A stretch of DNA of 64,000 nt from a virus: IMG/VR virus record IMGVR_UViG_3300021356_000010, positions 1-64,000 of that record. One strand, 5' to 3'. How positions within the stretch are numbered: the first letter of the stretch is position 1; each line of letters opens with the position of its first letter. A model generated the notes under the pieces. That model saw only the letters and a list, made by a program, of their open reading frames with translations, was not told the origin of the DNA and did no database searches. Shown piece by piece: positions 4,605-55,184 of the stretch. The position numbers and the translations under genes were made by a program.

Positions 4605-5342
4605 TTAATAACGGTTACTTACATCAAATGCATGTTCGCATCTATTTCCATCTGCCAAAACATAATGGAAAAATGCCTGATGCCAAAAAGTGTCATCACG
4701 ACCACGTAAAATTCTACGCGCCCACAGTTTATATTTAGGTTCGTCTCTACCGTACTTAGAAGTCAATGGTGGTCTCCAGTGTGGTATCTCACAACCTTTG
4801 TATATGATAGCATCTCCAGGTGCTGTAGTGATCCAAGTTTCTCTTAATTCTGGATTCGAACTATCCACAATGAATGGCCATTCATATTCCCACTTTAGAT
4901 TTGTTTTGATCATAAGACTGACAGAAATTTCACACGCATCTCTATCAACATGTTTTTCCAATTCCTGTCCTAAGAAATAGAACCTATCGTAGTAGTAAGT
5001 ATTATATAATTTTTTACCTAATACTTGTTCTATTTCTAATCTAATTTTTGTATGTAGATCTTTATATGCTGGCCAATTATATCTGCTAGAAGAACCATCT
5101 ACCTGACCCTCATCATCTACGTGAGAATAATTATCTACACTACCATAATAAGTTCTAGATCCTCTCCATTCTGGAACATCACATTCCAGTTTAGTGGGAT
5201 CTGGAACTAAGTTAGGAAGAAAAAAGAAACCATTAGTATCAAATTTTTCATTCCTGGTTCTTAAAGTAGAACCTTTTGTTGGTATCAATTGACTATCTAA
5301 AGCTATCATTTCCATCATTTCCACCTCGGACCAACTACCCAA
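4605..5342 (-). CDS. 2OG-Fe(II) oxygenase superfamily protein (true start probably about 5309-5318)
   Basis: Y.Y.RFY..GQEL.KHVDR.ACEISVS, GDA.IY.GC...HWR, Q.FFHYV: HxD...H triad. Confidence 0.8.
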   Translation of the reverse strand: MGSWSEVEMMEMIALDSQLIPTKGSTLRTRNEKFDTNGFFFLPNLVPDPTKLECDVPEWRGSRTYYGSVDNYSHVDDEGQVDGSSSRYNWPAYKDLHTKIRLEIEQVLGKKLYNTYYYDRFYFLGQELEKHVDRDACEISVSLMIKTNLKWEYEWPFIVDSSNPELRETWITTAPGDAIIYKGCEIPHWRPPLTSKYGRDEPKYKLWARRILRGRDDTFWHQAFFHYVLADGNRCEHAFDVSNRY

Positions 5343-5944
5343 CCAACAATAGATCTTCTAACACCAGAAGTAACTTTCAATACTCTATGTTGAGTTCTAG
5401 AATCAAATATAATTACAGTTCCTCTAGTTCTAGGAGCAAAATATGTTTTACCATTCTCATCTAGTAACTGAAGATTACCTCCTTCATAATCTGATGGATC
5501 TGATAATTGCATAACGATTGATAGTTTCCTGACATTTTCATACTCTGTATTAATCTTGTCAGAAATATACTGTTCTCCTGTAGTATCTTCTGTTTCGGGT
5601 TTGTACATATTGAGGAGACCATGATCAGTATGCCATTTATAAAATTGTCCCTCGGTATATTGAGTATATTGAATACTATTCATATCAATACAATCAATAT
5701 CGTACAGAAAATTTGATCGGTTAGCTAGCGAGACATAATGCCACAAAAATCCAGGTAACCAATGACCACTAGGAATCCAAGCATTACTAGAGTTCCTTGT
5801 TTTATTATCTACCTCCCCTTTATATAAACTAGAAACCTCCATGGAATCTCCAAACTCACTGAAGAGTTCTTCGTCTATAGTTTTTACTAATTTTTCAGGT
5901 AGTCCTGTAGAATACCAAACACTTTGGAATGCCATATCAAACAT
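5315..5944 (-). CDS. 2OG-Fe(II) oxygenase, prolyl-4-hydroxylase-like
   Basis: QYT.Y..GQFY.WHTD, RKLS...QLS.P.DYEGG.L, FDSR..HRV..VTSG.R.S.VGW..GP. Confidence 0.9.
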   Translation of the reverse strand: MFDMAFQSVWYSTGLPEKLVKTIDEELFSEFGDSMEVSSLYKGEVDNKTRNSSNAWIPSGHWLPGFLWHYVSLANRSNFLYDIDCIDMNSIQYTQYTEGQFYKWHTDHGLLNMYKPETEDTTGEQYISDKINTEYENVRKLSIVMQLSDPSDYEGGNLQLLDENGKTYFAPRTRGTVIIFDSRTQHRVLKVTSGVRRSIVGWVVGPRWK

Positions 5945-6482
5945 TAATAGGATGTAAATTGAATGAAAGAATCAATCTTTCTTTATCACTTGTACATGGT
6001 GATGTGTAGTGATGAATAACTGACGGGAAGAAAATCATAGATCCACTTTTTATTTCTGATGGAGTATGCACTAATTGACATCCAACAAAAAAGTTATTGA
6101 AAGGTGACAGAAATCTTGTTGGAGTATGTTCATCTTCATCATAGTCTATGTACAAGACACAACTATATCCAACAGCACCATGATTGTGGATTTCATGGTG
6201 CATACCTTTTTTAGCTAACTCAAACCAATGTCCATTTGGAGCATAAGACATATTTGTTGCTTGAGAAAACAATCCTAATTCTTCTTTTAGGATATCTACA
6301 ATGTCTTCCCAATAAGATTCTTTACCTTCTCTAAAGTAATCAGTTAATACAGTATAAGATAAATCTTTATTTACCGATACTCTGTTGTAAAGATCTTTGA
6401 GTTTTTTCTTCTTGACTTCCCAGTCCCTAACTTCGTAATGGAATACAGGAACGGAGAAAATGGATTCTTGATAATCACTCAT
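5937..6482 (-). CDS. Putative 2OG-Fe(II) oxygenase (HxH type)
   Basis: HEIHNH, S.VLY, FFPS..HH...., RLILSFN. Confidence 0.85.
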   Translation of the reverse strand: MSDYQESIFSVPVFHYEVRDWEVKKKKLKDLYNRVSVNKDLSYTVLTDYFREGKESYWEDIVDILKEELGLFSQATNMSYAPNGHWFELAKKGMHHEIHNHGAVGYSCVLYIDYDEDEHTPTRFLSPFNNFFVGCQLVHTPSEIKSGSMIFFPSVIHHYTSPCTSDKERLILSFNLHPINV

Positions 6483-7030
6483 GACAAACTAATATCAGAA
6501 TTAAATGATATAATTGTTTTTCTTTTATTTGATTCTACTTTTGGAGCAGAATGTACAATAAAAGAAGGGAAGGTTATAATGTCTCCCTCTTCAGTATCAA
6601 CATCAAATGTATCTGTATTATTTAGAGGACTGACAAAAACCGTTCTAGGACTTCCTTTTGGAAATTCTAGATAATAAACAGATGACCATTGACATTGTGT
6701 ATGTGTATGCCATTCATGAAAAGAATTTTTTTCATATTGCTGGAACCACATATTGATAATATTAACAGTTGGAAATCCTAGACTATTGAACAACTTAAAG
6801 TGATTCTCTTCGATATGAGGAAAAATAATATCTAGATATTTTCTTTCTGCTTCTTTGGGTAAGTTCCAATCACATTTACTGATCATGGTTTTTGTATATC
6901 CATGATCGTCTATACCAACATAAGAACTACACCCTGAAGAATCAATGAGACTTAAAATCTCATTCTTCAGGGTGTTGTGTTCTTTTAGTTTTGTTTTGTA
7001 TATTGGACAAGGAAGATCAAATACAAACAT
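6479..7030 (-). CDS. Putative 2OG-Fe(II) oxygenase (HxH type)
   Basis: WFQQY....H.WHTH, SSVYY, EGDI..FPS...H, RK.IISFN. Confidence 0.85.
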   Translation of the reverse strand: MFVFDLPCPIYKTKLKEHNTLKNEILSLIDSSGCSSYVGIDDHGYTKTMISKCDWNLPKEAERKYLDIIFPHIEENHFKLFNSLGFPTVNIINMWFQQYEKNSFHEWHTHTQCQWSSVYYLEFPKGSPRTVFVSPLNNTDTFDVDTEEGDIITFPSFIVHSAPKVESNKRKTIISFNSDISLS

Positions 7031-8035: not shown

Positions 8036-8737
8036 CTAAACGTAATAATTTGATTCTGCTGGTTTAGATGGCCAGATAGCATCATCTTCTACTCTTGTGG
8101 TAGGACCATCAATTGTAGTAATGTCGGTAATTGTTGATGGGAAATCTCTCAAAGCTTGACGATAAGTTTTTACTTCTTCTGAGATTGTTCTCCCGTCCTC
8201 AAGACCCTTAAGAAGAATAACATCAGATTCTTGCAATCTTCTGTTTCTATGTTCTCTTACAGCAGACCAAGTTGATTCTTTCTTGATTGCTAATTCTTCT
8301 GGGGTTAGATCTACAACAGTGTAGGTCTTTGTCATAACCATATTGACTCTATCAACTGTCCATTCAGAAATATCATTCTCTTCGCAAGTTTTATCAAATG
8401 CTAAAACTGATGGATATGATGCTTCTCTTATTTGAAACACATCATACTTTACTGTTACAGTAGTAGAAGTACCAATCCATTGCGAAAGATCTGTTCTTTC
8501 AATAATATGATTGGCATCATCAACTTCACTAGGATAGTTGTCAATTAATCTACGATAACCTTCATTCTTCAGAAGATAATCATCATCTACTAAAGCTTGA
8601 TTCTCGTATGTCCAACCAGGGTGTCTCTTTTCTTCACCGTCTGGTGTTAGATAGGATTTTGTGCGCTGAGCTTCGTTATATTCTTCTGTTGGAGATGGAA
8701 GAACTTCAGGCATCCAGTAAGTCTTTTCTTCTGACAT
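8036..8737 (-). CDS. Tail fibre assembly chaperone-like protein (C-terminal Phage_tail_APC/Tfa-like domain)
   Basis: W..VR..RN..L..SD......YRQALRD.P.....IWP.KP signature. Confidence 0.8.
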   Translation of the reverse strand: MSEEKTYWMPEVLPSPTEEYNEAQRTKSYLTPDGEEKRHPGWTYENQALVDDDYLLKNEGYRRLIDNYPSEVDDANHIIERTDLSQWIGTSTTVTVKYDVFQIREASYPSVLAFDKTCEENDISEWTVDRVNMVMTKTYTVVDLTPEELAIKKESTWSAVREHRNRRLQESDVILLKGLEDGRTISEEVKTYRQALRDFPSTITDITTIDGPTTRVEDDAIWPSKPAESNYYV

Positions 8738-9199: not shown

Positions 9200-12100
9200 T
9201 TAGATGATCGACCATGCAGCACCATCTAGGATGGTGACTACTGTGTTGCCAGTCAATTCAATTGGTCCAGCAGACATACAGTTTGTGTTTGCAGGAACGG
9301 TGACGTTTTCTGCAACTGTGTTTCTGTTTGCCTTCATGACACCGTAGGTATCAATATACTGTCTGTCACCCATCACTCTCATAGCGTTGTCGTTATTGTT
9401 ATTGGATGCACTTGCGGTGGTAGTTCCGAAGGAAGCACCAACGAAGTTAGAAGATCCATTAACATGTAGTTGATAATCAGGATCTGCCTGATTAACACCA
9501 ACTCTAGATAGTCTATAGATGTGTCCGCCAGTCGTGCTATCAGTCCATTTAGAAGTAACGAATGGAGAACCATTAGCATATAGAGTTCCGTTGAGGTTGA
9601 AGTTACCATCAACATTCAACTGCATGTCGATACCATTAACTGTGGTAGTTGTGGTATTAATAGAAACTCTGTTTGTATCACCATCGATTGCAATAGCAGG
9701 TGTAGCATTCCAGGTTGTTCCACCATTAGCAGTTGATGCTTGGATGGAGAAGATATCATCGCCAATTAATTGGTTGCCAATTCTAAAGTTTCTAAAGGAA
9801 GATGAACCGAGGAAATTGACACCGACACCTGAATTATCATTTGCACTGTCTAGAGTTAGATTTGATCTAATACGAGCAGCAGCATTTACATCTAAACGAT
9901 AATTAGAATCTGGATTGTTTGTTCCGATACCAACTGTACCATCATGCTTGATGGTCATTCTCTCAACATTATTTGTTCCGAAGTGCAGTGCATCTTCACT
10001 CATATTGACGATTGCACAACTACTATTGTTTCCAGAAGTAGAGAAATGATAAGCACTATTGAGGGTATTGTCGCTATTGCTTATCAATAATCCCCAAGCA
10101 CTGTTGCTACTGTGTGCTATATTAACTTGGTTATAATTACCACCTTTAATACCAACAACATCACCTGCACCAGAACCACCAATATCAAATGTTCTAGCAG
10201 GAGTGCCAGAGTTAATACCAACTCTATTTGTTGATGCATCTACAAAGAATGTATTTGTATCAACAATCAGATCTCCAGCAATTGTTGTGTCGCCAGTTAG
10301 AGTAGATGTTCCAGATACGCTTAGGTTAGATCCAGCACCAGTTAGAGTTAGCGAACCAGTCATGGTGTCGCCTGCTTTCAATACGTTTAGAGAAGCAGCA
10401 CCAGTTACGTTACCAGTGATAGCTCCAACAGCAATATCTCCATTAGCATCACGAAGAACAGCAGTGTTTGGAACATTGGTTGTTTGGAATTGAATGTTAC
10501 CTGAGTTCCAGATCTGGTTACCGTTGATGGTCATTCCATCGGCATTAACAACCTGAACGTTCAGAGTTCCAGATCCGTCAGTTCCATTGCCACCAGAAGC
10601 AATCATTGCAACGTTGTAGTTTGCTGCTAACTGAGAACTATTGAAATAGATTCCAGGTGCAGAAGAAACACCGTCCTTTCTTCCTAGTCTTAGGTTAGCT
10701 GTTCCACTATCACTTTCTAGTACAGCAACATCAATGGTGTTACCGTCTTCAATAGAGAAGTCTTGGAATGGAACTCTATTGCTTGCAGATCCAATAGTTT
10801 CTGCACCAATGAAATTACCAGTTGTTAATCTACCAACGATAATTGTATAATCATTAAAGTTATCAACAGTATCGTCATTGACGATAAGATTATCAATCGT
10901 GATTTCACCTACATTCTGAGAATTGCTATTATACAGATTGACAGAGTTGCCAGGAGTAAATGGTGTAGATCCCAGAACTAAACCACTAACATAAATTTGA
11001 TATCTTGGATCTCCATTGAATGATTTAATTGTTAGATCATCGCGGATAGATGATGCACTGATAAATCTTGGAAGTCTTTCATCAGATAGAGTTCCGTAAT
11101 TGACATTCAGAGCATTCTGATACCAGATGCCTTGGCGGTTGTCTAGTTTATCAGCGTCAAGATCAGATCCAGGACCATCATTGAGAGAACTCCAGATCTT
11201 ACCCCAAGAACCAAAAGCGGTGAGACCAGTTCCAGAACCACGGAGGTACATGTTGTCATTATCAGTGAATGCAAGTTGTCTTACACCACCGAAGGAAGCA
11301 TCAAATCCAGATCCACCATTTCTGATGGTCATTACAAGGTTCTTGCTTCCACCATCATTGAGACCATTAGCACTGTTGTTAATCGTATTAGCAATAATAC
11401 CTTCAACAAAGTTATTAGGAGATGGGTTTGATGTTGGGTTGTTTGTACCAGTAATCAAACGAATAGTGTTTGCAGAAGAACCCGAGATACTAATATTGTA
11501 AGTACCAGATAGTCTATCAGTTGGTAAAGTTCCAGAGTTTTGGTTAGTTGAGTTTAGATAGAACGCACCTTGAGCACCATCGAGGAGGTCAGCATCTAGA
11601 CCACTATCAGCACCAGTTTTCAGTGTGACAGAACCGTTACCTTCTGTGCCAATATCAAACTGAGACTTCTTAAATCTAGCAACACCAATTGTACCGAAGA
11701 GGTCTGCACTGACCGTTAGATCAGTAACTCTCTGAACATCAATAGCAACATTTGCATATTGCTTATTAACTGTGGAAATTTTTGCTGCTAATACTGCATT
11801 GGATCCTGCACCAATGGTAGCAGTTGGCAGTGTAGTAATATTGAAGTCTGCGGTAAATCCAACACCACCATCAGTAACAACAATATCGCTGATTGCATTG
11901 TTTGCTACTGTAATGTTTGCTCTTAAACCAGTTCCAGTACCACCAAGTAATTGCTGGTCAAAGTATTGACCGTTTGTAAATCCAGAACCACCACTAGCAA
12001 TTACGATAGAATCTACAAATCCACCTTGCGTGTATGAAGACTCAAATGTGATAGGAGATGATCCTCTATCGAATTCAATAACTGTACCAACTGGAATTGT

Positions 12101-15100
12101 TGATGTTAGAGTATTACTTAGTGAAATAGTTGTAAATCCACCAGACGTTAATACTCCATCAATGTTAGTATTCGCTTGAATACCTGTTACATTAGCAACT
12201 ACTTCATGTCCAACTAATACATCCGAATTGGTTGTAAATTGTAGTTCGGAACTTCCAGAAGAAGCTTGAGAACTTAGTTTTGCAAAATATCTAGTCTCTG
12301 TGCTCTTTACAGATTGTACTGCCAGTGCCCAGTTTTGATCTCCACGTAAGAATGTGAATGAGTTTGCAGTTCCTCCAGTAGCAATAACGTTTGCTGGGAT
12401 CGGACCACCAATAAGGGTAGAACCGTCGATAGTGCTGGAAGTTAGTGATACCCAGTTGTTACTATCAAATGATGATGTATTGACAACTCTGGTAAGATTA
12501 ACAGTTACTGCTGGGATATCACTGGATTCAATAGTATCGGTATCAGTAATAGCAATGTTATTGACAATATCGCCATACAATCTGCTTTCAATTAATGCGA
12601 CACCTGTTGCCTGTGTTCCAGATCCAGCAGGAGCAGAGAACGTTACTGTTGGAGCAGTTGTGTATCCTTTTCCTCCTTTATAACCATTGAATTCGACAAT
12701 AGTTACAGTTACAACTTCTCCATTTGCAATGGTACTAGTTGCTGCAGCAGATACTCCACCTTGCTGGGGATTACCACCAGCAATTGTTACTGTAGGTGGA
12801 GAGGTGTAACCAGAACCACCATCGGTAATATTGATGGTATGAACTACACCTTGTCTATATTCAGTTGCTTGAACTCTTCCTTGAGATATGCTGCCAAGGA
12901 AAATATCGCCAATTGTAAATTGGATAGTTGGATCAACACCAAATGCAAGGAACAAACTATCCAAGTCATTGTTAAGAATGAATGATGTAGTTGTGTCTTG
13001 CTGAATAGCAATGTCACCAGCGAGTGCTCCTTCGATAGAAGTTCTTTCTTGCTGGTCTGCAACAGTATAAACTTCAAATGGTCTTAGTGCTGGAATTTGG
13101 TCGATAGAAATCTTACCCGAATCGGTAAGTTCAACCAGTGCTCTAGGAACAGCATTTGTAGAGTATGGTTTGTTGATGTAAGGACCAAGGTTGTTAGTGA
13201 TATAGTCCTTAACTGCCTTTTGAGTAGGTAGTTTAGAGTCAGTAGCATTAGCACCACCAAGTGTGTTAGATGCATCGAAACCAGTAACAACAACGTCGCC
13301 ACCCTTCAGTTTCAAGAATTCAACTTCAGAGATAGTAACCGTGCCAGTAAAGGTGATAGCACCAGTTCTGTTTTCAATCTGAGCAAAAGTACCAACTTTG
13401 AAGTCACCTAGTTCGTCAGTACCAGAGACATATACACGACCATAGTCCTCAGAGACTTGCTCGTTTGCCTCTACTTTAGTACCACCGTTTTCAGGTAGTG
13501 CTAAGTAGTTAGTACCAGAACCTGCAAATTCCCAAGTGTGGGAAGAACTATTAACAATAGATGGTCTGTGAAGTCTGATGGTTTCTCCAAGAAGAGAAGC
13601 AGCAGTTTGAGGAGTTCCATCACTGTCTCTGATGACGCTATATGGTTGTCCAGTTCCATCGTCGATGGTGATCGTAGCAGAGAAAGGAGGACCAACTGTA
13701 ACACCAGATACTTCGTCGATGAAGTATTCTACTGTGCTTGATGTATTACTATGACCATCAACTTTAACAACATAGTGCTCTAGTGGTTCTCTTCCTAAAT
13801 TATCAACAGTAAAGATAGTTCTTCCAGTTGGAGTTGCAGAAACATTAACAATAGTACCAACGTCAAATGAATATGCCTCTCTTCTAAATCCTCTACCACG
13901 TAGAGCAAACTGACCAAAGTTTGTAGCGGAGTTTGTAACTGATGCATAACCACCAGACTCAGCAAGAATACCATCAGCACAGAAGATAACGAAGACCGAA
14001 ACTAACTGAGTGTAACCATCTTCAATAATTTTATATCCTGTACCACCAAAGGAGACGATGGTGAATGCAGATGCAACCATCGACTTACCCTGATTGGGGA
14101 AGGTTGCAGAACCATCAAGTTCTAGACCAGGGAAAGGACAGTTGGGTTGCTTAACTTTAGAACCATCAACTAGAGCACCACTACCACCTAAGAACGAAAT
14201 GATAGAAGAGTTCTGAGTATATGGCGATGCCTCAATGATTGGATAATCATCAAAGTCACCACGAATTGCCATCCTTTGATTGTTAGCATCATAGATGTAA
14301 CTATCTGGATATGTAATTACATTTGTAGTGTCAAATAATGTTCCTGTAGTCTTAGTAGTAGTTCCTGGTTCGATTGCAGTTCCACTAGCAGGATCCTCTG
14401 CATACTCTAGAATGCCATCTAGAATACCCATAGAAGTTGTGATAGATGCTTCTACGTTTGCACAAAGAGGATTGCCTAGAGGATCTGCTAGAATAGTTGC
14501 ATCAACAAACTGTGGAATTGGAGAAGATGTGGTTACAGCAGCGCCAGCACCATCTTTCCATCCACGCATCGCTGCGATAGCAAGATCTCTTACTTGAGTA
14601 TATGCATATCTGGTCTCTTCTATTTGAGATGCATCAATACCAGTCAGTGCAGTTCCTGTGAAGTATGTTTCTGCATTAGTTACAATTCCAGAGTTTCCTC
14701 CAAGAACAAGGTCTCTAATTAGACCACCTAGAATATAATTAATATCTCTACGGCACTTTCTTTGATGAATATCAGACAGTCCTAGAGAAGGGAACTGTGC
14801 CTCAGTATTGATAAGTGCTTGATCTGCAATCAGATCTCTGTTTCTAGCAATTAGATATGCAGCATCTAGATATGTGCCAGAAGCATCGTTAGCGATAACA
14901 TCAACATATAGATATGCAAGAGTATCGATAGCAGATCTTACATCATCACACGCAGGAGTTCCAGCAGTTGCTGTAATAACACTGTCGTCAAAATATCTTG
15001 GTACGCTAGAATATACTGGGGTATATGCTGGATTGCCTGGAGTTCCATCTCCAGTTCTCCAGTTTCTCATTGCAAGGATTGCTAGTTCTCTAGCATATTC

Positions 15101-17989
15101 AATTGCACGTACAGTCTGTATAATCTCATTTTCAATGTAAGCAATCTTAGCACCAACAATATACTTCTGTGCTGCTTCAATAATGTTATGGTTAGAACCA
15201 AATTCAAGGTCTCTTACAATGGCGTTGATAAAATGTCTTACATCTTGACGACACTGTTCATCACCATTAGTTTCGCTGTTTGTTACAGTAGGAGAACTGT
15301 ATGATGGATAGACTTTAGTTCCTGCCTCACAAGAAATTTCAAGACCTGCTAGTTGTACAGTATCGTCTTCTGAAAGATTTAGTGATACATCAGTAGTTAC
15401 TGTTGCTACTCCAGTTACTGCTGTGTCATAAACAAAATTAGTTACATTAGCAGTAACTCCACCGAAAGTTGCAGTACCAGTTGGATTTGCACTATCATAA
15501 GTATTTGCATGATCTAGTGTTCCTAGGAAAATATCAAAGGAAGTTCCACTTACATTATAAACAGAATAGTATTCTTTCTTGAATTGATCATTAATTCTTC
15601 CTACAACTTCATCCGCAATAAAATCTCTGTTGTTGCGTAAGAATACACAAGCATCTTGGAATCTTCTTTCTACTGGAGTAGAAAGACTGAAATTATTTGG
15701 TGAGTTTAGTAGTGTTAGTGTAACTGACTTGGAGTAAGATTTTACAACCGCTGTTTGTCCAGGATCAAAGTTTGAATCATTAATTGTTGGAGCTTTCTTT
15801 GGAATTACAAATCTTCTAGAACGACCATCAGCATCTTCTAGAACTTTGTAAATTCTTTGTTTGCCCATCAGGAAAGATAGGTCTGGATTTAGAGTAGGCA
15901 ATCCAGAGATTTCAATTTCTTGACCTTCTTTGAAGTCGTGAATGTTGTCTCTACCAACTAGTTGGTTTGTATAGAATACAATACCACCAAGATCTTCTGC
16001 ATTACCAAACTGAGCATTTTGGAAACCACCAGTTGCGATACTTGGATCTCCCTGTAGAGAGAAATCAATTCTCTGAATGGGAAGAGTAGAAGTTACATCT
16101 TCATCTACAGAAACAACTTCACCCTCTGCTCTAATTGATTTAATGGAGGTACTATCAAAAGACTCTGTTACGATAGCAGCCTGGAAAATATTGATAGATG
16201 CTGCTTGATTAGTTTCCCAAGAAGGTGAGTTGAGAATAGGTACAACTGTTACTTCATAACTAGTTGGAGCATTGGTATCATCAATAGTTGCAACTTCGTA
16301 GAATCCTTGAGTAAAGTTAGCATCTGCAGTATCATCTAGAAAGATATAACTTCCTGGAATAATGCTATCACCAGTAGGATTTGTCGAAAAGATCAGTGTG
16401 TTTGTTCCAGCAGTTGCTGTGATTGTTTGTGTATTGATCTGACTTCCTTGAGAACCAGAAACAATATAGTCAAATCTCTCACCTTCTACGAAAGAACCAC
16501 TAGTTAGAAGAACATCTACACTACCATTAATGTACGCTGATGCTCCAGTAGTTGTATCAAAAACAACATTACTAATTTTTGCTCTAGCACCAGTATTGAC
16601 ACCAACTACTTCTAAACCACTGGTAAGTGCTGATAGACCAGTGTTTTGCTGGAAATCGACATTGAATTTGTCTGGTCCAAAAATTTGATGACCAATTGGG
16701 AAATCTACACCAAAGTCTCCATTGACTTCATTGTCGATGACAACTCTTTGCTTGTCATCAAATACCATTGCAAAGTCCCAAGTTGCAACAGAGTCACCAT
16801 TTGAATCAATTTGATCGCGGAAGGTAACACCAATAACATAGTTTTTATCACCAAACTTGACCATGTGTTTGCCAGGATTGGCAGGTCTCATGATGACGAG
16901 ACGTAAGTTGTCACCTACAATGGAACAATCAGGTGGTAGAGAAATTGGGTTATCTTCTACGTAGTCACCACCAGAAACAATCAGTGTTTCTTTTACGCCA
17001 GGAGTTGACCATGCCAACTGTGCCGCTTTCTTAATTGTGCGAACAGGATTGACAGCAGAACGACCATCGTTTTGGTCGGAACCAATCTGTTGAGAAACAT
17101 AGATACGACCACCAACGTCATTCGTTGCTAGATTGAGGACGTATTCTGTAGTTGCAATCTTATCAGATCTGTCACCAAGTACAGGTGTAATAGATCTTGG
17201 ATATACACCAGATTCTCCTGTTGTTCCATATCCAAACGCTTCATTATCATCTACTCTAAAACCAATATGCTTTAGTGTAGCAGTACCATTGACCACTTCG
17301 CCATCAGTATGGGTTGGAGCATCTGCTCCAGTAGTACCAGAAACTGTTACTTGATAAATATTTGATCCAAAATATCTGTATGAATCTTTCTGTAAGAAAA
17401 CACTTGCAGACCAAAGAGTTCCTGTAGCGTTAGCGTAGGTTTTTAAGTTTGGAGCTCTGTGATTTAGATCAGGACTAATTAGATTATCAACATCTAGGTT
17501 GAGAATTCTTGCAGTATCAGAAATGATAGAAGTAGAAGTTCTGATAGCACCAGAAATATCTAATTCAAAATCAACCGTATCGAGTGTTGCTGTAGCAGCA
17601 GCACCTACACCACCACCTCCAGAAAATGTTACTGTTGGTGCAGAAGTATATCCACTTCCTGGATTATTAACAGCAATTGTAGTTACTTCACCATTGAAGA
17701 TGAAAGCAGAAGCAAGAGCTTGAACTCCACCAGATGCTGGGGGAGAAATATTTACGGAAGGTGCGCTAGTATATCCAGAACCGCCAGCGGTGATTTTAAT
17801 CGTATCAACTCTTTGCCCAGTTCTATTGATACCAACACGAGGCAATCCAGTATTGCTATCAAGTTGAGCACGAAGGATTTCTTTTTCTAACGAGCCTGTA
17901 CCCGATCGAATGGTAAGTTCGTTATCACCGATGAGTTTGGGTTGAGAACCTCTTACAAACTCTTTATCGGAATTGATATTAAAACTCAT
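9200..17989 (-). CDS. Giant tail fibre / virion structural protein (2929 aa)
   Basis: GLDADLLDG, LDADKLD, VLKAGDTMTGSL and VGIGTNNP fibre motifs; YVS...GSD.NDG....P..TI beta-helix start; G.GY..AP.V repeats; two phycobiliprotein-like helical repeats. Confidence 0.9.
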   Translation of the reverse strand: MSFNINSDKEFVRGSQPKLIGDNELTIRSGTGSLEKEILRAQLDSNTGLPRVGINRTGQRVDTIKITAGGSGYTSAPSVNISPPASGGVQALASAFIFNGEVTTIAVNNPGSGYTSAPTVTFSGGGGVGAAATATLDTVDFELDISGAIRTSTSIISDTARILNLDVDNLISPDLNHRAPNLKTYANATGTLWSASVFLQKDSYRYFGSNIYQVTVSGTTGADAPTHTDGEVVNGTATLKHIGFRVDDNEAFGYGTTGESGVYPRSITPVLGDRSDKIATTEYVLNLATNDVGGRIYVSQQIGSDQNDGRSAVNPVRTIKKAAQLAWSTPGVKETLIVSGGDYVEDNPISLPPDCSIVGDNLRLVIMRPANPGKHMVKFGDKNYVIGVTFRDQIDSNGDSVATWDFAMVFDDKQRVVIDNEVNGDFGVDFPIGHQIFGPDKFNVDFQQNTGLSALTSGLEVVGVNTGARAKISNVVFDTTTGASAYINGSVDVLLTSGSFVEGERFDYIVSGSQGSQINTQTITATAGTNTLIFSTNPTGDSIIPGSYIFLDDTADANFTQGFYEVATIDDTNAPTSYEVTVVPILNSPSWETNQAASINIFQAAIVTESFDSTSIKSIRAEGEVVSVDEDVTSTLPIQRIDFSLQGDPSIATGGFQNAQFGNAEDLGGIVFYTNQLVGRDNIHDFKEGQEIEISGLPTLNPDLSFLMGKQRIYKVLEDADGRSRRFVIPKKAPTINDSNFDPGQTAVVKSYSKSVTLTLLNSPNNFSLSTPVERRFQDACVFLRNNRDFIADEVVGRINDQFKKEYYSVYNVSGTSFDIFLGTLDHANTYDSANPTGTATFGGVTANVTNFVYDTAVTGVATVTTDVSLNLSEDDTVQLAGLEISCEAGTKVYPSYSSPTVTNSETNGDEQCRQDVRHFINAIVRDLEFGSNHNIIEAAQKYIVGAKIAYIENEIIQTVRAIEYARELAILAMRNWRTGDGTPGNPAYTPVYSSVPRYFDDSVITATAGTPACDDVRSAIDTLAYLYVDVIANDASGTYLDAAYLIARNRDLIADQALINTEAQFPSLGLSDIHQRKCRRDINYILGGLIRDLVLGGNSGIVTNAETYFTGTALTGIDASQIEETRYAYTQVRDLAIAAMRGWKDGAGAAVTTSSPIPQFVDATILADPLGNPLCANVEASITTSMGILDGILEYAEDPASGTAIEPGTTTKTTGTLFDTTNVITYPDSYIYDANNQRMAIRGDFDDYPIIEASPYTQNSSIISFLGGSGALVDGSKVKQPNCPFPGLELDGSATFPNQGKSMVASAFTIVSFGGTGYKIIEDGYTQLVSVFVIFCADGILAESGGYASVTNSATNFGQFALRGRGFRREAYSFDVGTIVNVSATPTGRTIFTVDNLGREPLEHYVVKVDGHSNTSSTVEYFIDEVSGVTVGPPFSATITIDDGTGQPYSVIRDSDGTPQTAASLLGETIRLHRPSIVNSSSHTWEFAGSGTNYLALPENGGTKVEANEQVSEDYGRVYVSGTDELGDFKVGTFAQIENRTGAITFTGTVTISEVEFLKLKGGDVVVTGFDASNTLGGANATDSKLPTQKAVKDYITNNLGPYINKPYSTNAVPRALVELTDSGKISIDQIPALRPFEVYTVADQQERTSIEGALAGDIAIQQDTTTSFILNNDLDSLFLAFGVDPTIQFTIGDIFLGSISQGRVQATEYRQGVVHTINITDGGSGYTSPPTVTIAGGNPQQGGVSAAATSTIANGEVVTVTIVEFNGYKGGKGYTTAPTVTFSAPAGSGTQATGVALIESRLYGDIVNNIAITDTDTIESSDIPAVTVNLTRVVNTSSFDSNNWVSLTSSTIDGSTLIGGPIPANVIATGGTANSFTFLRGDQNWALAVQSVKSTETRYFAKLSSQASSGSSELQFTTNSDVLVGHEVVANVTGIQANTNIDGVLTSGGFTTISLSNTLTSTIPVGTVIEFDRGSSPITFESSYTQGGFVDSIVIASGGSGFTNGQYFDQQLLGGTGTGLRANITVANNAISDIVVTDGGVGFTADFNITTLPTATIGAGSNAVLAAKISTVNKQYANVAIDVQRVTDLTVSADLFGTIGVARFKKSQFDIGTEGNGSVTLKTGADSGLDADLLDGAQGAFYLNSTNQNSGTLPTDRLSGTYNISISGSSANTIRLITGTNNPTSNPSPNNFVEGIIANTINNSANGLNDGGSKNLVMTIRNGGSGFDASFGGVRQLAFTDNDNMYLRGSGTGLTAFGSWGKIWSSLNDGPGSDLDADKLDNRQGIWYQNALNVNYGTLSDERLPRFISASSIRDDLTIKSFNGDPRYQIYVSGLVLGSTPFTPGNSVNLYNSNSQNVGEITIDNLIVNDDTVDNFNDYTIIVGRLTTGNFIGAETIGSASNRVPFQDFSIEDGNTIDVAVLESDSGTANLRLGRKDGVSSAPGIYFNSSQLAANYNVAMIASGGNGTDGSGTLNVQVVNADGMTINGNQIWNSGNIQFQTTNVPNTAVLRDANGDIAVGAITGNVTGAASLNVLKAGDTMTGSLTLTGAGSNLSVSGTSTLTGDTTIAGDLIVDTNTFFVDASTNRVGINSGTPARTFDIGGSGAGDVVGIKGGNYNQVNIAHSSNSAWGLLISNSDNTLNSAYHFSTSGNNSSCAIVNMSEDALHFGTNNVERMTIKHDGTVGIGTNNPDSNYRLDVNAAARIRSNLTLDSANDNSGVGVNFLGSSSFRNFRIGNQLIGDDIFSIQASTANGGTTWNATPAIAIDGDTNRVSINTTTTTVNGIDMQLNVDGNFNLNGTLYANGSPFVTSKWTDSTTGGHIYRLSRVGVNQADPDYQLHVNGSSNFVGASFGTTTASASNNNNDNAMRVMGDRQYIDTYGVMKANRNTVAENVTVPANTNCMSAGPIELTGNTVVTILDGAAWSII

Positions 17990-31119: not shown

Positions 31120-32931
31120 TCAGAACTCGATAACTAGTTTGATATCTTCAATCTGGTCTTGAGCACGGGTGATAAGACGACGGTTCTCGACGTAAATTAC
31201 CTCACCAGAGTTGTTCTCGATTTCTGGAGCAGCAAGACCAGATGCGAAGGTCTTACCTAGTAGAGAACCAGCATATCCTGTATCAACAGTTCCAGAAGCA
31301 GCAGATAGTCCGCCGCTAACTGCGTTTGCACCATTGCTCTCGAATGCACGAACAACACCTTGATCGGTATGTGCCTTTGTTGTTTGGAGATACTTGAGAA
31401 CACCATCAGTGGTAGAACCCTGATCTAGTGTCCAGGAAACGACAGTACCGTATGCAGTACCACCAGTTACAGTCTGGGTAATGGTCTCATCAGGGATATA
31501 GTCCGCAGTTGCTCCACTGATCTTAATTGCCTTGAGACCAGAAAGAGTATCTGCAGTAGCAAAATCAGTAGTGCCCCATAGTTGTGGATCCTTGATAATA
31601 CCAATTCTACGGAAGTCGTTATCAACAGGGAAGTCTCCTTGACCTTCCGCAAACTCGATGCGAATGTTGGTCATGACACGCTTACCATTCAACTCTTGCT
31701 CATGGTTCGATGCGTGTCCTCCTTGTGGAGGTAGAATTGCTTCTAGAGCACCAACAGCGTTAGCAGCAGTTGCAACTGCTGAAGATAGACCAGCATCAGA
31801 GAAGAGGTTACCGTTGCCGAGGAGAACGTTAGCATAAGTGTAACCTGATCCTCTTGCTTCGATTCTTGCAGCAGTGATAGTACCAGAACCATCAGTGTCG
31901 AAAGCAACTACTCCACCAGCACCGTCTCCTTTGATGGAGGTGTATAATGTCTGTGAAGCAGGAAGGTTTGTACCAGCATTCTCAACTAGAACAACATCAA
32001 CAGCACCATCAACAGCAAGTGCAGTCGCTTCTTGTCTTGAGGTGTTAGATGCTAGAACGATTGGAAGGAAATCTGATGAGAGGAATCTTACAGCATCATC
32101 GATTTCTAGTTTGTACATGAACTTCCAGATGTATCCAGCACCAGTAGTTTCAGTGTATAAACCAGTAGCAGCGTTATAGTTTGCTCCACCTCTTGATGGT
32201 TCCTCAGTAGCGTTTTGACCAGCTGGGTTTGCTGGGTTTTCGCCGTTGTAGAGGCACTTGAATACTTCGTAAGTTCCGTTCATTACGTAGAACTTAGCAT
32301 CAGCAATGCTATTTGCACCCGTTGCAGTTTGCTTACCAACTTGACCACCGCCACCAGGGGTAGCAGAGTAGTCAGGTTTCCACATGTCAAACTTAGGGTT
32401 CGTTACGACATCCCAGTTGTAACGACGAATTACTGTTCTGGCATAAGCGGTAGTAATTCTCTTAGCGGCAATAATTTCGTCGTAAAGACCAAACTTCTCG
32501 TCCTGGTTGTCTAGTGGAAGAGGGGGAATGTCCTCTGTTGCGTAGCGATAGACTCCAGTAACAGCAGTAGCACTGGTAGTAGTAGAACCACCATCTGCAG
32601 TTTCGAGAAGAGTGCTGCCTAGTGGAGGAACAGAACTGATTCCGTTTGCTCCAAAAATACTCGATAGAAGGAGGGCACCGTCATAAACAGCAGCAACCGT
32701 AGCACGGAATGCTGTTGATCCATACGTTCCAACAAAGACCTCATTGCCAACAGTAAAGTTGGTTGAAGACTTCGTATGGACCTCTAGGTATGCGGACCAT
32801 TCTTGAGGGCGTCCTACGAAGAAGTACATTCTTGAACGCTCGGCGCTAGTATCGGTAGCACCCTCAGAAAGCGACTCTAGGAATTGAGACGCATTAAAAA
32901 TTCTAAACTTATCAGAGATAATAGCAGCCAT
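31120..32931 (-). CDS. gp8: Baseplate wedge subunit
   Basis: MAAIISDKFRI.NA..F, FYVMN..Y.VFKCL.N, GYIWKFMY, NDFRRIGII.DP, C-terminal Q.EDIKLVIEF. Confidence 0.92.
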   Translation of the reverse strand: MAAIISDKFRIFNASQFLESLSEGATDTSAERSRMYFFVGRPQEWSAYLEVHTKSSTNFTVGNEVFVGTYGSTAFRATVAAVYDGALLLSSIFGANGISSVPPLGSTLLETADGGSTTTSATAVTGVYRYATEDIPPLPLDNQDEKFGLYDEIIAAKRITTAYARTVIRRYNWDVVTNPKFDMWKPDYSATPGGGGQVGKQTATGANSIADAKFYVMNGTYEVFKCLYNGENPANPAGQNATEEPSRGGANYNAATGLYTETTGAGYIWKFMYKLEIDDAVRFLSSDFLPIVLASNTSRQEATALAVDGAVDVVLVENAGTNLPASQTLYTSIKGDGAGGVVAFDTDGSGTITAARIEARGSGYTYANVLLGNGNLFSDAGLSSAVATAANAVGALEAILPPQGGHASNHEQELNGKRVMTNIRIEFAEGQGDFPVDNDFRRIGIIKDPQLWGTTDFATADTLSGLKAIKISGATADYIPDETITQTVTGGTAYGTVVSWTLDQGSTTDGVLKYLQTTKAHTDQGVVRAFESNGANAVSGGLSAASGTVDTGYAGSLLGKTFASGLAAPEIENNSGEVIYVENRRLITRAQDQIEDIKLVIEF

Positions 32932-32986: not shown

Positions 32987-35900
32987 TTAGGAAATTGAGA
33001 AGGGGATCAACTCATCAAGACGATTAATGCTGTTTATTCCACTATAAAGAGTACAACCAGTGAATGAGTTCGCAGTTGTACCAGTATATTGAATAACTGC
33101 TCCAGTGCTAGTAAATAAGTATCCTTCACTTGGGAAGTATGTAGTTGATCCAAGAACATTAATTGTAGATGGTATCAATCCCTGAGTGTCAGATATAGCA
33201 ACTGGATTTTGAATTGATGCGGTAGCAAGATTGAAGTAATCGCCTGCTAGAGTGTAACTAGAATTCGCACGCTCCACAAAATCGTTAATTGTCAAGTTTG
33301 GATAGTAGAATTCAATATCTAGTAGTGACAATCCAGAAACATCACATACACCATCATCTAGAATTTGATCGAAGTTTTTCAAAGTTGGACCAGCATTTCC
33401 AGTTGTGTATTGTCCGACATACTCTGTCGAAGCTCCAGATGCATTAGTAATAGCAACGATGTTGCCATTTCTTTGTGTAACAGTATATGGTTCAGGAATA
33501 TCAATGAATCCAGCTCTTGTTAAGATTGGATCACTGAATATTACAGATTCCTCATATCCGTCAATCACACCAGATGGTGGAGTGAATAGAAGTACTTCTA
33601 GAGTTTCTTTTCTCAACTGAGAATTTGACTGTACCGATAGTACAGAGTTAGAAACTTGTGTAGAAGATGATGATAGGAAGTTAGTTTGATCAGCAGTAAT
33701 TTCAAGTGAAACTACTCTCTCACCAGGAGGAATGACTACGCTAGTGATAGAATCTACGAATGCTGAAATTTCTACTCCAACTACAGTTACGGTAGAAGTA
33801 TTTTCAATTGTTACATCGGGAGTAATTACTTGAATACCAGTAACTCTCTCAGTTGTTCTTACATCCGATGCTATTCTCATAGTAACAACTTGAGAATCAG
33901 ATTCAATTCTGGTGACGCCACCGTATGCTACAGATACTGGATCTGGAATCTGTAATACAAATGTTCCTGCTGGATGTAACTGTGCAGTTGTTCCCTCTTG
34001 TCCTCTCTGGACATTCAAGAATCTTCCAAAACCTTTACGGTAGTATCTAACTACTTCCGTTCCAATCTGTAAGTATCCATTAGAACTAAACTTAGTAACA
34101 TCGGGAACAAATACAATATTGTCGGTTGGATCCAAATCAATAGACAAGAATGCACCAACAGAATGGTAATGACCAGCATTAATATCAGTATTGTCAATCT
34201 GGTTAGTTACTATAGAAGTGACTTCTCTAGAAGAAATCAGAGAAGAAGTAGAAATAATATCATCAACACGACCAGATATAATAGATACGTATTCATTTGG
34301 TGCTGTTGATGCCGTAACAGTAACGATTGTACCTACACCACCCGAGAGGGTTGTAATGCTATTAACACCAGCAGTGAGACCAGTTCCAACGTTCTCTTCC
34401 AAATAAATCTCACATTCAATTACTCTATCAAGATCTCTAGGACTCTCAAAGAGAATTGTAGTAAATGATTCTACACCAGGAACTTGGTTTCCAAGTTCAG
34501 TAATCGTCGAAGATGACGACATAATAAATGCAGGTAGAGTCGAATTGATTCCACCATTGATAGTAGAAACACCAAATCCTCTTCCTTGCAAGATCTCATA
34601 TCTTCTTGCAACAACAACTCTTGGTGCTTCTGTGTATCCAGATCCACCCTCAAGCAGATCAACACTGATAACTTGACCTTTACTTACAAGAACTACTGCT
34701 TTAGCGCCGCCACCATTTCCATTTTTTGGAATGAAATGTAATACTGGTGGTGTATAATATTGATATGCAGTTGGTTGAGTCAAAGGATCATAACTACGTT
34801 GATTCCACTCAAGACTTACAACTGATCCGTTTTCAATCTTGGCGACAATACTCAGTCCTTCGCCTCTAGTTACACCATTATATGCTTCGACTTGAGCGAT
34901 ACCAAAATTGGAACCAGAGACATATCCTTGATTTCTATGTTCTTTAGAGGTTGTTGTTTCTGGTGCTTTCTTAACTCTTCTAAAGTCACTCTCACCCTCA
35001 ATTCTTACATAGTCCTCATCTGACAGAGAAACAAAAGGATCTCTATAATACTTACCAATAAATGTTCCACGCCAAGCGTTTTCTGATACTGGATATGCTA
35101 GTTTGAGTCTTCCGTCCTCATCAGTAACATAAGATATGCTGGATCCAGAAGAATTCAATCCAATAATTCTATTATTAGAATAATCTCCTTTAATTCCTAC
35201 AACAACATCAACACCTTGAATCAAATCACATTTCTGACCTTCAAGAGTAAAGGTTAATATGTTGGAAGATTGTGATGGATTTGTAAGTTGTCCGATAACA
35301 TTGAAAGATCCATTAGGATTGACTTGCCATGCATGGAAAGATTCGGAAGAATTCAAACCAATCCAGTTCAACAATTCAGTTGCTCCAGAAGCAACATCAA
35401 ATGTTACTGTACCTTGTGCATAGAAAGTATCTTGATTAAAATCGTGGAAATTGATAATTTGATCTAAATCTCTTCCATAGAGATATCTCATATCAATTTT
35501 GGTATCCTTCTTAATTGGAACGTTGAAAGAGATTGTAGATCCTGCTACACTATAAGAATATTCTCTTCTCTGTAAAACTCCATCTAAGAATACAAACAAG
35601 TAATCTTGCTGTTCAATTTCTTGTGATGTGTTATCTTCAACGTCAAGAATTAAGAAAGGACCACCTCTAACTTCATCTACTAGTGCATAATCAATAGTTA
35701 ATCTCTTGTAGTTTCCTACTCCAACACCAGCGACTAGCTCTACTGCTGTTGGTTCTCCAATGCTCTTAGCACTAAAGTCTTGATCCCAAATAGGAGCAAC
35801 ATCAAATACTAATTTGTTTGGAATAGTTGTTCTATCAATATAGTATGCATCAGAAAGAGGATACGATTCTGTATATTTTGGTCTCTGTAAGACAGCATTC

Positions 35901-38900
35901 AGTGTTAGGAATAGATCTTCGTCCTCTTCAGTATTGACCTCTGTGTCGTCATCCCAATACATATCAAAAGTAGTGGTCTCTCCATCTAAGAAGTCTGGAG
36001 TAGATCTAGTAACACTGGTGCCATTAAGAATATCACTTACATTGTTAAACAACGAATCTACAGATGAAATAACATCGTTGCACTCTTGTGCTGTCAATAG
36101 AGGATCAGGAATTATGTTATAATTAGAATATGTTAAGGTTCTACTCCAGTTTCCAGCATAATTCGAATTGATGTTGGTTTTCTCTATTAAACCTTTACCT
36201 TCATTCAATATAGTATTGATTATGCTGTAGAAATTATTCAAAGAACTTTCTACCTGAGCACAATATGGGAAAGAAGTATCTGTTGCTACAGTACTATCTG
36301 TGAATGGGGGAATAGAAGTATATGTTCCTATTCCTAAATTATTTCTCATGGCATCAACCATAAGAACTTTCAATTCATTATATGCACCAGCAAATTCTGC
36401 AGGACTTACACCTGCTTTCAACTGCTCTGGATATGGATAAAGATTTCTTTCATAGTATAGTTGTGCAAAATCAACTATCTTAAAGTTGCCACCAAGTCTC
36501 AAATGATAAACAGTAGCATCAACATAAGTATCAATATCTTTTACTAAATCTGTCCAAGTAACATTAGGATATTGTGCAGCAAACCATCCAGCAATTTCTT
36601 CCTTGAAATATTCTTTATTGCCAGCAATTAAATCCGACGCATCCCAGAACGTTCCATTGTTAATACCACTGAAGTAGAAAGTTGCACTATCAGAAGCAGA
36701 GAATGAAATAGGTGCTTGTAAAACATCACCAGGATCTACAGCATACTGATTTCCAGGTTGAACTGCACCTGTGCTCGTAGGAATAATATAATCACTACCT
36801 CCTGTTGATCCATTCAGATCAGTGACACCCGCTGCAGCACCGCCGCCTCCACCAGAGTTTGCTAGAGCAGCATTGTTTAAAGTGACTTGTGTATCACTAT
36901 CAATAGAAACAATTTTAGTTCCAGATGCGAATGCAGTACCAGAACTAATAAACATTCCAATAGCTAGATTATTAGTATTGGCAACTGTTACCTGTCTAGA
37001 TCCTTGAATATATGCAACATTCTCTTCTACAATATCCCAGTTTCTAACTGCTAATTTAGCGAGGTTAGTAGCATACTTGAATATATCTAAAGACTCAGTT
37101 TTATTAGTTGTGATATAATTGTAATCATCATCTGAATTGAATATTGAGAGATAATCTACAGTTTTAATGTTTCCACCAAAACGTACATCGTGTTCATATG
37201 CATCAATAATAAATCCAACATCTTCTAGATAATCATCAATCTTAGTGCTCCAATCTAAATTTGGATGCTTCTCTCTACCATATCCTACTGCTTCCTCAAC
37301 AATAAATTCTCTATTTCTTTCAATTTGATTTGCAGCATCTAACCATCTTCCATTTCTCTGGAAAATATTTCTCAGTTTCTTGAAATACTGGTTGTTATAT
37401 TGATTATCTTTGAACTCAATATATCTTCCATAGAATACTGTACCATCATAAGAAGTTAGATCTGTAAGATTAGTTCCAGTCAATTTAGATGATGGACCCA
37501 AAGGTGCTTGGGAGAAAACAATCTTATCACCTGACACTGTATAAGAAACTTCTGGTTCTTGCAGAATACCATTCAACGTGATAATAAGATTCTTTGCACT
37601 GACTGGGGTAAAGGGATTACCTTGATCATCTAGGAGTTGGAAAATCTTTTGTCCAACATTCTCTGCACCACCAGTGTAACCAGTTGTTGCATCAACACCA
37701 TTGACTCCATTGAAAGGATCGGCAAGAGTAACCTCAAATGCTCTTGTTTCAGAAAAATTAAATTCTGATGCATGAGCAGTACCAACTCCTTTGATTTCTT
37801 TAGTGCTCTTCGAACTGGTTACAGTCTGAGTTACAATTCTTCTGGTGCTCTCTACACTAATCTTGTTCTTTTCTGGATCCCAAAGTTGAATAATAGTAAA
37901 ATTGTCAGACTTTGGAGACTGCGCTGGCATTCTAATTTCAGCGTCAGATTCGATATCAACCTGACCAAACAACTTGAATCCAGCTGGATGAGTTGTAGAT
38001 TTAATCAAGTCTCTCCATTGATCAATTGGAGTTTTTGATTTTACAACATATGAATAGTCTTGATAGAAGAAACTGTCAGTTAGTTTTTGATTAGCAACAC
38101 CAAGTTTTCCTCTATCAGACTGATAAGATCCAATGTTATCGTAGAATGATGCAATCTCTTCTGTAAGAGAAGTTACATATACTGTTCTAACCATTCCAGA
38201 AGAATTGGAAATTTTTCCTACAATAGAAACGGAATTTCTTATACTTCCTACAACATCATCTAATTTGAGTAAATTAGATCCAGATCTCCATTCAGCAACT
38301 TTGGCACGGAATACTTCAATACCATTAATAGACTGAGATACCTTCTCACCTTTTAAGAAATTGCCACTAAAATCTTTCAGAGAAATTACATACTTTGTTG
38401 TAAAGGTAGAAGATACAGTCTTGTCTAAATGATATGCTCCACCATTTCTGAAGATGTTGATACTTTGTGGAGTTCCAATAGTATTACTATCAACATATGC
38501 TTCTACATCAGATTCAATGATTTGAATTGTTGGAGCATAAGTATATCCTCTTCCAGGATTATCTACAGTAATAGAGAAGATCTCTCCATTTCTTGCAACA
38601 ACATTGAATGTTGCATCAAAACCATCTCCATCAATGATGACAACTTTTGGATTTACATAATTAGATCCTTTTTTGTCAATATCGACACCAGTTATTGTTT
38701 GTGTAGCAGTATCAAATAATACTGTTGCTTCAGCAATAAAAGTAGAACTAAGATCGCATCCCAAAATAACAGGGACCTTCTTATAGTTTAAACCCAAATT
38801 AGAAACATTAATAGAATTAATCTCACCAACAGCAAATTGTCCAGATGTGGTGTATGTAATAGTTCCAGATCCATCCCAAAGTGGAATAGATGTCAAGTCA

Positions 38901-51966: not shown

Positions 51967-52147
51967 GTTCTTTCTTCACTGTCTGATAGTATAGTTTATA
52001 GTATTTGTTCTTCATCTCTGTTAGTATAGCATTATCTTCATCAAATGCCATGTATTTTGTTAATTGGTATGATCCTTCTAGTTCTGATAGTAAGCGTAGT
52101 ATGTTAGTTGATGATGGTTTTAGTCCGCCATGTGAGTATTGTGACAT
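51944..52147 (-). CDS. Hypothetical cyanophage protein
   Basis: LRLLSELEGSYQL.KYM.F.ED motif. Confidence 0.75.
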   Translation of the reverse strand: MSQYSHGGLKPSSTNILRLLSELEGSYQLTKYMAFDEDNAILTEMKNKYYKLYYQTVKKERDQPTHK

Positions 52148-52740
52148 GATATGGATAGTCTATTGGTTGAATCACCGAACTCACCATGAAGGAAAATATT
52201 AAAGGAGATAGCGTATCTTACTTGATCTGATTGTGATTGTGGTGCTGAGTGTTCAATATGTGATGGGAATAGTAATAGTGTTCCTTCTTCTAGTTGAATA
52301 TCTAATGTTTTAGAGTTGTAAATGTTTGATTGATTAGTTGTTGGTATTACTGTTCCTGGTACAAATGATGGTATGAATGGTGATTGATGTAATGAGAGTA
52401 TGTTACCTGATTGTGGGGGGACTTGGATGTAATATATGCCAGTGAAGATAGAGTTAGCATGTGAGTGTTGTGGTAGATAGTCTCCCTTAGTGTGTTTATT
52501 ACACCAACTATTGATGATTTGGAACGATTGTTGTATTTGTAGTTCGTTGTGAATGTAATGGGAGATGTGTGGATCTAACTTATCTTCTAGTGTAGGAGTG
52601 ATTAGTTGTTGATTAGTAGAGATATAACCATTATTCCCTTCAGACCTATTGTATTGTGTATTGGTGACTAGATCTATCTCGTGTTGATCTACTGGTAAGT
52701 TAGTTTGATATAGGGGAGAAGAGAATAGTGGTATGATCAT
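52120..52740 (-). CDS. Putative 2OG-Fe(II) oxygenase (TIGR02466-like)
   Basis: LFSSPLY, SW.N....G.Y..QHSH.NS...G.YY, EG.LLLFPS...H, RY.ISFN. Confidence 0.85.
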   Translation of the reverse strand: MIIPLFSSPLYQTNLPVDQHEIDLVTNTQYNRSEGNNGYISTNQQLITPTLEDKLDPHISHYIHNELQIQQSFQIINSWCNKHTKGDYLPQHSHANSIFTGIYYIQVPPQSGNILSLHQSPFIPSFVPGTVIPTTNQSNIYNSKTLDIQLEEGTLLLFPSHIEHSAPQSQSDQVRYAISFNIFLHGEFGDSTNRLSISCHNTHMAD

Positions 52741-55155: not shown

Positions 55156-55184
55156 AGTATAATATGTATGGGTCAGAGTGTCAA
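55156..55184 (-). promoter_or_regulatory. sigma70-type promoter TTGACA-N17-TATACT
   Basis: Near-perfect consensus. Confidence 0.85.

Follow-up and report, generated by a model that had tools for sequence, protein, structure and literature searches.

The question raised by this locus is whether a phage has built part of its tail fibre from phycobiliproteins (PBPs) and, if so, whether that part still holds a pigment. The locus lies in a window of 64,000 nucleotides (the whole stretch of DNA that was analysed, positions 1 to 64,000 of the IMG/VR record IMGVR_UViG_3300021356_000010). The source record is an 81.7-kb contig of a T4-like cyanomyovirus, about 42% complete, whose closest named relative is Synechococcus phage S-RSM4. 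In its giant tail-fibre protein, a preliminary description made from the sequence alone had noticed two helical repeats with candidate bilin-attachment cysteines. The homology of these fibre domains to PBPs proved to be well supported and is hardly in doubt. Covalent binding of a bilin by the fibre protein, mainly at residue C1079, is plausible, and we consider the chances to be evenly balanced.

Residues 779-1200 of the fibre form two helical repeats, repeat 1 (779-1035) and repeat 2 (1036-1200), as had been described. They are homologous to each other (BLASTP, 32% identity over 114 amino acids, E 4e-20), and their N-terminal helices also align on their own (E 0.001). In domain 1, the first helix is separated from the Cys helix by a beta-rich insert of about 100 amino acids. 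The four cysteines C913, C1014, C1079 and C1176 were checked and match exactly the codons assigned to them in the preliminary description. The open reading frame (ORF) of the fibre and the features of the two domains are as follows, with the evidence from hidden Markov model (HMM) and structure searches given where it defines them:

9200..17989, minus strand: giant tail-fibre ORF of 2929 amino acids, orthologue of the S-RSM4 'tail fiber protein' SRSM4_146.
14885..15655, minus strand: PBP-like domain 1, residues 779-1035, by homology to domain 2 (HMM match at residues 916-1030, independent E-value 1.5e-21).
15575-15655, 15275-15574 and 14885-15274, minus strand: parts of domain 1, namely the helix B-like part, the beta-rich insert and the globin core.
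15242..15253, minus strand: motif C913-R-Q-D916 of domain 1 (C913 codon 15251-15253), with Gln at the Arg position.
14948..14950, minus strand: C1014, where the last helix of domain 1 begins.
14390..14884, minus strand: PBP-like domain 2, residues 1036-1200, from the AlphaFold2 model, the top Foldseek and VIA matches and the profile search of the PDB.
Residues 1041-1065, 1073-1096, 1100-1107, 1120-1141 and 1174-1198: helices of domain 2 as modelled by AlphaFold2.
14744..14755, minus strand: C1079-R-R1081-D1082, the full C-x-R-D triad of domain 2, aligned to PBP Cys84/Arg86/Asp87 (C1079 codon 14753-14755).
14462..14464, minus strand: C1176, where the last helix of domain 2 begins, equivalent by position to beta-Cys153/165, without sequence support.

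The conservation of the four cysteines, which had been suggested as a check, was confirmed in the orthologues on 38 viral contigs (57-99% identity), barring the fourth Cys, which is gone in two loci; one of the 38 orthologous loci is cut short. The triad C1079/R1081/D1082 is invariant across all 38. The C-x-x-D motif that had been proposed is present in both repeats, but they differ in that repeat 2 reads C-R-R-D and repeat 1 C-R-Q-D, the propionate-binding Arg being replaced by Gln. Many orthologues also carry a beta-rich insert of 90-200 amino acids, with its own Cys, in the G-H loop of domain 2. Since domain 1 of the studied phage has its insert in the B-E loop, both loops are hot spots of insertion.

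A direct Pfam scan of the whole fibre protein and of residues 779-1195 gave no match at E<=1, and a phmmer search of the domain against the PDB sequences ranked phycocyanin alpha first with a non-significant E of 0.34. A profile, A2, was built from 13 orthologous sequences (domain 2 of the window and 12 from viral contigs) and nine paralogous copies from the three giant ORFs of the genome. All 49 matches of this profile at E<10 among the PDB sequences were PBPs, the best being 5aqd_A (E 7.7e-5). In the alignment, profile positions 2-58 corresponded to residues 39-101 of the PBP alpha subunit, with the phage Cys (C1079) on the bilin-bearing Cys84, the invariant Asp (D1082) on Asp87 and GG on GG. 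The bilin site Cys84/Arg86/Asp87 is in register with C1079/R1081/D1082 in repeat 2 and with C913/Q915/D916 in repeat 1, and this bears out the earlier assignment of the first Cys and the Asp of each repeat to the bilin-attachment Cys and the pyrrole-contacting Asp. Furthermore, the Pfam model PF00502 (gathering threshold, 22.2 bits) exceeded its curated threshold on a distant member of the family, P0004, with 30.4 bits and E 4.4e-7. The search with P0004 found no counterpart among viral contigs, and the scans of genome contigs with P0017 and P0014 gave no matches. The fibre domains are regarded here as a diverged sister family of the PBPs, outside PF00502 by Pfam's own rule.

The predicted structure led to the same family. 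An AlphaFold2 model of residues 1040-1200, made with A2, had a pLDDT of 85.6 and a pTM of 0.85. All the matches listed by Foldseek against the PDB were PBPs or close relatives, with a probability of 1.0 and query-normalised TM scores of 0.55-0.67. In a VIA search, independent of Foldseek, C-phycoerythrin beta (5aqd_M) reached a Z of 15.9 (root-mean-square deviation of 2.2 Å over 142 residues), and the top eight were all PBPs or the bilin domain of ApcE. Other globin sensors scored Z values of about 9-12.4 against the domain models, under all PBPs. The PBP-like fold had been put forward with the proviso that a prediction of another kind would overturn it, and it was the fold that the model and both searches returned. 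The part of the PBPs that aligns with the model begins at residue 35, and helix B directly follows the preceding domain. Since the match begins at that residue, the N-terminal X-Y helix hairpin, which builds the PBP alpha-beta monomer, is absent from the modelled domain 2; as predicted, the domain retains helices B, E, F, G and H of the PBP-type globin fold without this hairpin. No His that could act as the proximal His of helix F was found in the invariant or near-invariant columns of the family. A model of a repeat from the jumbo phages described below also folds PBP-like, with a Z of 15.7 to allophycocyanin and only PBPs in the top eight, and the profile of the jumbo repeats (A3) placed phycocyanin alpha first among the PDB sequences, although with a non-significant E of 0.21.

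The extent of the family was analyzed by an exhaustive phmmer search with domain 2, which gave 607 cluster representatives at E<1e-3, many of them with 20-34 copies per protein. Site statistics were calculated from 1,433 copies in the best 151 of these 607 proteins, with a mutual identity of about 30%. The C-x-R-D residues were conserved in 97% (Cys), 94% (Arg) and 99% (Asp) of the copies, a family-specific Asp located 14 residues downstream in 97%, and the three residues of a GGN motif in 77%, 65% and 83%. The Arg was retained in 95% of the copies bearing the Cys and in 49% of those without it (Fisher p 2e-14, a value inflated by the relatedness of the copies). Within the studied genome, PF00502 also gave sub-threshold matches on paralogous copies. 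Two of the copies without the first Cys are in the gp7-like region:

37007..37369, minus strand: paralogous PBP-like copy without Cys (Y-L-E-D) in the gp7-like ORF; sub-threshold PF00502 match, E 1.9e-4.
36191..36658, minus strand: another paralogous copy that lacks the first Cys (L-V-K-D), with the Cys of the last helix kept.

The distribution of the domain was examined by tblastn against 50,697 phage records, with domain 2, a nine-copy metagenomic protein and seven jumbo-phage repeats as queries. They matched 296, 288 and 338 records, respectively, and all of these were Synechococcus or Prochlorococcus phages or, in a few cases, 'Marine virus' single-cell records. Among them, gp7 of P-HM1 and P-HM2 carries PBP-like repeats. 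The family is phage-specific, with one to tens of copies in giant baseplate and fibre proteins.

The many-copy proteins come from uncultured jumbo phages and not from T4-like cyanophages. One of them, P0011 (4957 amino acids, 21 repeats), is found on contigs of 62-110 kb that are 20-30% complete according to CheckV, which corresponds to genomes of some 350 kb. One P0011 contig encodes a major capsid protein with 69-72% identity to those of jumbo myoviruses that infect Pseudomonas (PA5oct), Vibrio and Sinorhizobium, and with 67% to those that infect Erwinia. In three jumbo fragments (G001-G003, 20-30% complete) no psbA, hli, cpeT, ferredoxin-dependent bilin reductase (FDBR) or heme oxygenase was found. 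One of these phages, G002, also has an open frame of at least 5870 amino acids, possibly of more than 9000 should it run on from one locus into the next (L056:592-18201 into L057:64-9864), without the PBP-like domain. A larger set was obtained with the N-terminal domain of P0007, which retrieved 80 viral contigs, and the 18 of at least 100 kb were analyzed. The PBP-like domain was present in all 18, with 1-41 copies each and in ORFs of up to 6904 amino acids. Neither psbA nor cpeT was found in these 18 contigs. By contrast, heme oxygenase was detected in ten of them and an adjacent FDBR in nine, all above the Pfam thresholds. The four genomes at least 90% complete contained heme oxygenase in every case and FDBR in three, and the negative contigs were fragments 29-74% complete.

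In the phage database, the FDBR query matched only 23 records, corresponding to 22 T4-like cyanophages and the cultured Pelagibacter phage Mosig (MT647606.1), where hemO-pcyX lies between the fibre region and gp13. This slot of Mosig (2OG oxygenases, 'ferrochelatase', endonuclease V and then gp13) is syntenic with the 2OG-Fe(II) oxygenase slot of the studied phage. As for S-RSM4, cpeT is present, and neither heme oxygenase nor bilin reductase was found.

A retained ligand function is suggested by the lone near-invariant Cys, together with Arg and Asp, in the register of the PBP bilin site, by the restriction of the family to phages with bilin-making hosts or with their own bilin synthesis, and, in a second lineage of phages, by its association with genes for heme oxygenase and reductase. 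The K-C-x-R-D site of the family would hold a linear tetrapyrrole, as in PBPs, through a thioether link to the Cys; this would be C1079 here, with C913 as a weaker, Arg-less site. The Asp would contact the pyrrole nitrogens and the Arg a propionate. The bilin could be supplied by the infected cyanobacterium or, in other phages, by phage heme oxygenase and bilin reductase, and its attachment may be autocatalytic, as in ApcE, or may proceed through lyases of the host or of the phage. This would make the virion fibre pigmented, and the likeliest use of the pigment, speculatively, would be as a light-responsive element in adsorption. Such a role in light-dependent adsorption is an attractive inference that goes one further step and is speculative. 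The broadest proposal is that the virions of T4-like cyanophages and of psbA-less jumbo phages would carry bilins covalently bound on PBP-derived baseplate and fibre domains, the particle being a photoreceptor that gates adsorption by light and the domains a phage substrate for the bilin genes (ho1/hemO, pebS, pcyA, pcyX and cpeT). It is held tentatively, and as a whole it is rather unlikely. According to our own estimate of about 100-200 sites per particle, the pigment would escape the naked eye in ordinary preparations.

Several observations speak against a pigmented fibre. Three of the ten copies in the studied genome lack the first Cys (Y-L-E-D, L-V-K-D and N-K-V-D), and repeat 1 has Gln in place of the Arg. 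The PF00502 threshold is not reached by the fibre domains, and single copies are nearly never significant (2/22 and 1/21 at E<0.1), the best E of PF00502 among 22 copies from the studied phage lineage being 0.0079. No CpeT or bilin reductase was found in the 81.7-kb record, which is only about 42% complete and in which no search for heme oxygenase was made; the earlier statement that the window contains no bilin gene thus holds for these two. The co-occurrence with heme oxygenase and FDBR in jumbo phages comes from related lineages, without a matched control set. Moreover, no PBP-like domain was detected in Mosig by either of two profiles, so that the hemO-pcyX cassette does not require the domain. 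The co-occurrence with bilin genes that the preliminary description had asked about was seen in jumbo contigs and, for cpeT, in S-RSM4, but it does not extend to Mosig. To our knowledge, there is no report of cyanophage virions that are coloured or fluorescent. Separately, Mosig provides a useful negative control for bilin-acceptor hypotheses.

The chief rival is a purely structural explanation, in which a PBP gene captured long ago would serve as a rigid helical spacer or decoration without any ligand, C-x-R-D being kept for folding or packing. This is a real possibility, although we regard it as doubtful. Like structural repeats, the domain serves as a building block in tandem, with as many as 34 units in one protein and 41 in one genome; large inserts are tolerated in two loops, some copies lack the Cys, and the extra invariants of the family (the second Asp, 97%, and the Asn of GGN, 83%) do not belong to the bilin residues of the PBPs. 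The Mosig cassette without the domain and the absence of any reported pigmented virion would also fit a module of this kind. On the other hand, a lone Cys kept at 97% over more than 1,400 copies with about 30% identity is unlike a packing constraint. Moreover, Cys and Arg are lost together, and in a second lineage of phages, which has no psbA, the domain is found alongside genes for bilin synthesis.

A different chemistry of the conserved Cys was also considered, such as an inter-chain disulfide or a metal site in a trimeric fibre, a redox switch or a different ligand. T4 fibre proteins use metal sites, and the second Cys-helix, which also occurs free-standing in tandem without a globin core, may have a role of its own. 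However, neither a conserved His nor a second Cys accompanies the first one, three-fold symmetry cannot pair all the cysteines, and Cys, Arg and Asp are precisely the bilin triad of the PBPs, so that this explanation is improbable.

The second Cys itself (C1014 and C1176) had been equated with the Cys153-155 site of the beta subunits. Its position agrees with this proposal, since C1176 (model residue 137) is at the start of the last helix and the ranges aligned by VIA (model 156 = chain 184) put it near residue 165 of C-phycoerythrin beta. The profile of the C-terminal Cys-helix segment, by contrast, gave only chance matches in the PDB and zero PBPs. The region of the second Cys is present in only about 330 copies of the family, 57% of which carry the Cys. 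In addition, the last helix, with the pattern 'C..V...I..L', is present three times in succession as a free-standing element, with no globin core, in an ORF of 3685 amino acids (70657-81711, minus strand; residues 1285-1395 and 1616; contig 77500-78000, outside the window), which argues against a bilin site of the beta-153 type. In some copies of this ORF the Cys-helix seems to replace helix B of the following domain. A structural disulfide between the two cysteines of each repeat, named earlier as a possible objection to bilin binding, appears unlikely, because most members of the family bear only one Cys and, in the PBP fold, a long distance separates the two sites; the 21-repeat protein has 35 Cys in total.

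A chance or convergent likeness of a generic helical bundle to PBPs is very improbable, for although the direct Pfam scan of the fibre protein was empty and helical models often reach a Z of about 13, the profile matched PBPs exclusively, PF00502 was above threshold on the relative P0004, two independent models gave Z values of 15.9 and 15.7 with PBPs throughout the top eight, and the motifs are identical in register. The use of the fibre as a phycobilisome mimic for adsorption, which had also been suggested, was ruled out because phycobilisomes are intracellular.

Bilin binding by the fibre, if confirmed, would bear on matters that the literature leaves without an explanation. What the bilin genes of phages do 'remains a mystery' (PMC3037559), and on these genes 'we can only speculate' (PMC11480375). 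The adsorption of P-HM1 and P-HM2 needs light, and that of the cyanomyoviruses S-PM2, P-HM1 and P-HM2 is light-dependent without host photosynthesis (PMC6628666). The reason why cyanophages, and also some phages whose hosts are not photosynthetic, have genes for bilin synthesis and lyases, the way in which cyanomyovirus adsorption depends on light and the presence of a pigment in the virus particle become testable questions. Virions that bear a pigment would constitute a new type of viral particle, and even without pigment the domains constitute a large, undescribed phage-borne branch of the PBP superfamily (607 cluster representatives, of which the best 151 contain over 1,400 copies). No description of PBP-like domains in phage particles was found in a literature search.

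The fibre ORF matches the tail fiber family phrog_5342 at E=0 and is 81% identical to its counterpart in S-RSM4, with equal gene order. It belongs to a baseplate-fibre gene module with a chaperone, as a T4-type fibre or baseplate protein does. The module comprises gp6 (43491-45284), the gp7-like ORF, gp8 (31120-32931), ORFs of 2703, 1403 and 166 amino acids and then the fibre ORF. Two of its members are the following:

32987-43486, minus strand: gp7-like ORF of 3499 amino acids, which holds paralogous PBP-like copies.
8036..8737, minus strand: tail-fibre assembly chaperone-like gene, directly downstream of the fibre ORF (PF16778 Phage_tail_APC, E 1.4e-11).

Five 2OG-Fe(II) oxygenase genes were also observed (window 5315-7030, 52120-52740 and 60646-61266), three of them in the interval from the fibre gene to the neck genes. 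The higher-GC part of the window encodes a DUF7717 protein and an N6/N4 DNA methylase (55181-55630 and 57187-57987).

The phage domain can be compared with several known systems. Like the alpha and beta subunits of the PBPs (PF00502: CpcA/B, CpeA/B and ApcA/B), it has a globin-like fold with helices B-H, K-C-x-R-D-[IV]-G-Y at the start of helix E and GG at its end, and its long G-H loop, like the Cys with which helix H begins, recalls the beta subunits. It differs from them in its low identity (14-20%), in the extra invariant Asp and Asn and in the lack of the X-Y hairpin, so that neither an alpha-beta monomer nor an (alpha-beta)3 ring is expected. It is also found, single or in tandem, within giant, extracellular virion proteins, where the pigment is only putative. 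The core-membrane linker ApcE offers another parallel, being a large multidomain protein with a PBP-like domain that has a large insertion in the B-E loop, as in repeat 1, and that matches the phage models with Z values of 13.6-14.1. ApcE attaches its own bilin without a lyase, at a Cys located at a different place within the domain than in the phage family, and unlike the phage domain it retains its N-terminal helices and becomes part of the core of the phycobilisome. The bilin biosynthesis-associated globins (BBAGs) of heterotrophic bacteria are PBP paralogues outside antennae that are genomically linked to bilin synthesis (PMC10151467). This linkage, compared by description and not by sequence, parallels that of the jumbo phages with hemO-FDBR, whereas the BBAGs are cellular, single-domain proteins. 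Finally, the globin domains of globin-coupled sensors, RsbR and photocobilin have a similar general topology with lower scores than all PBPs, and the phage family differs from heme globins and globin-coupled sensors in having no conserved proximal His.

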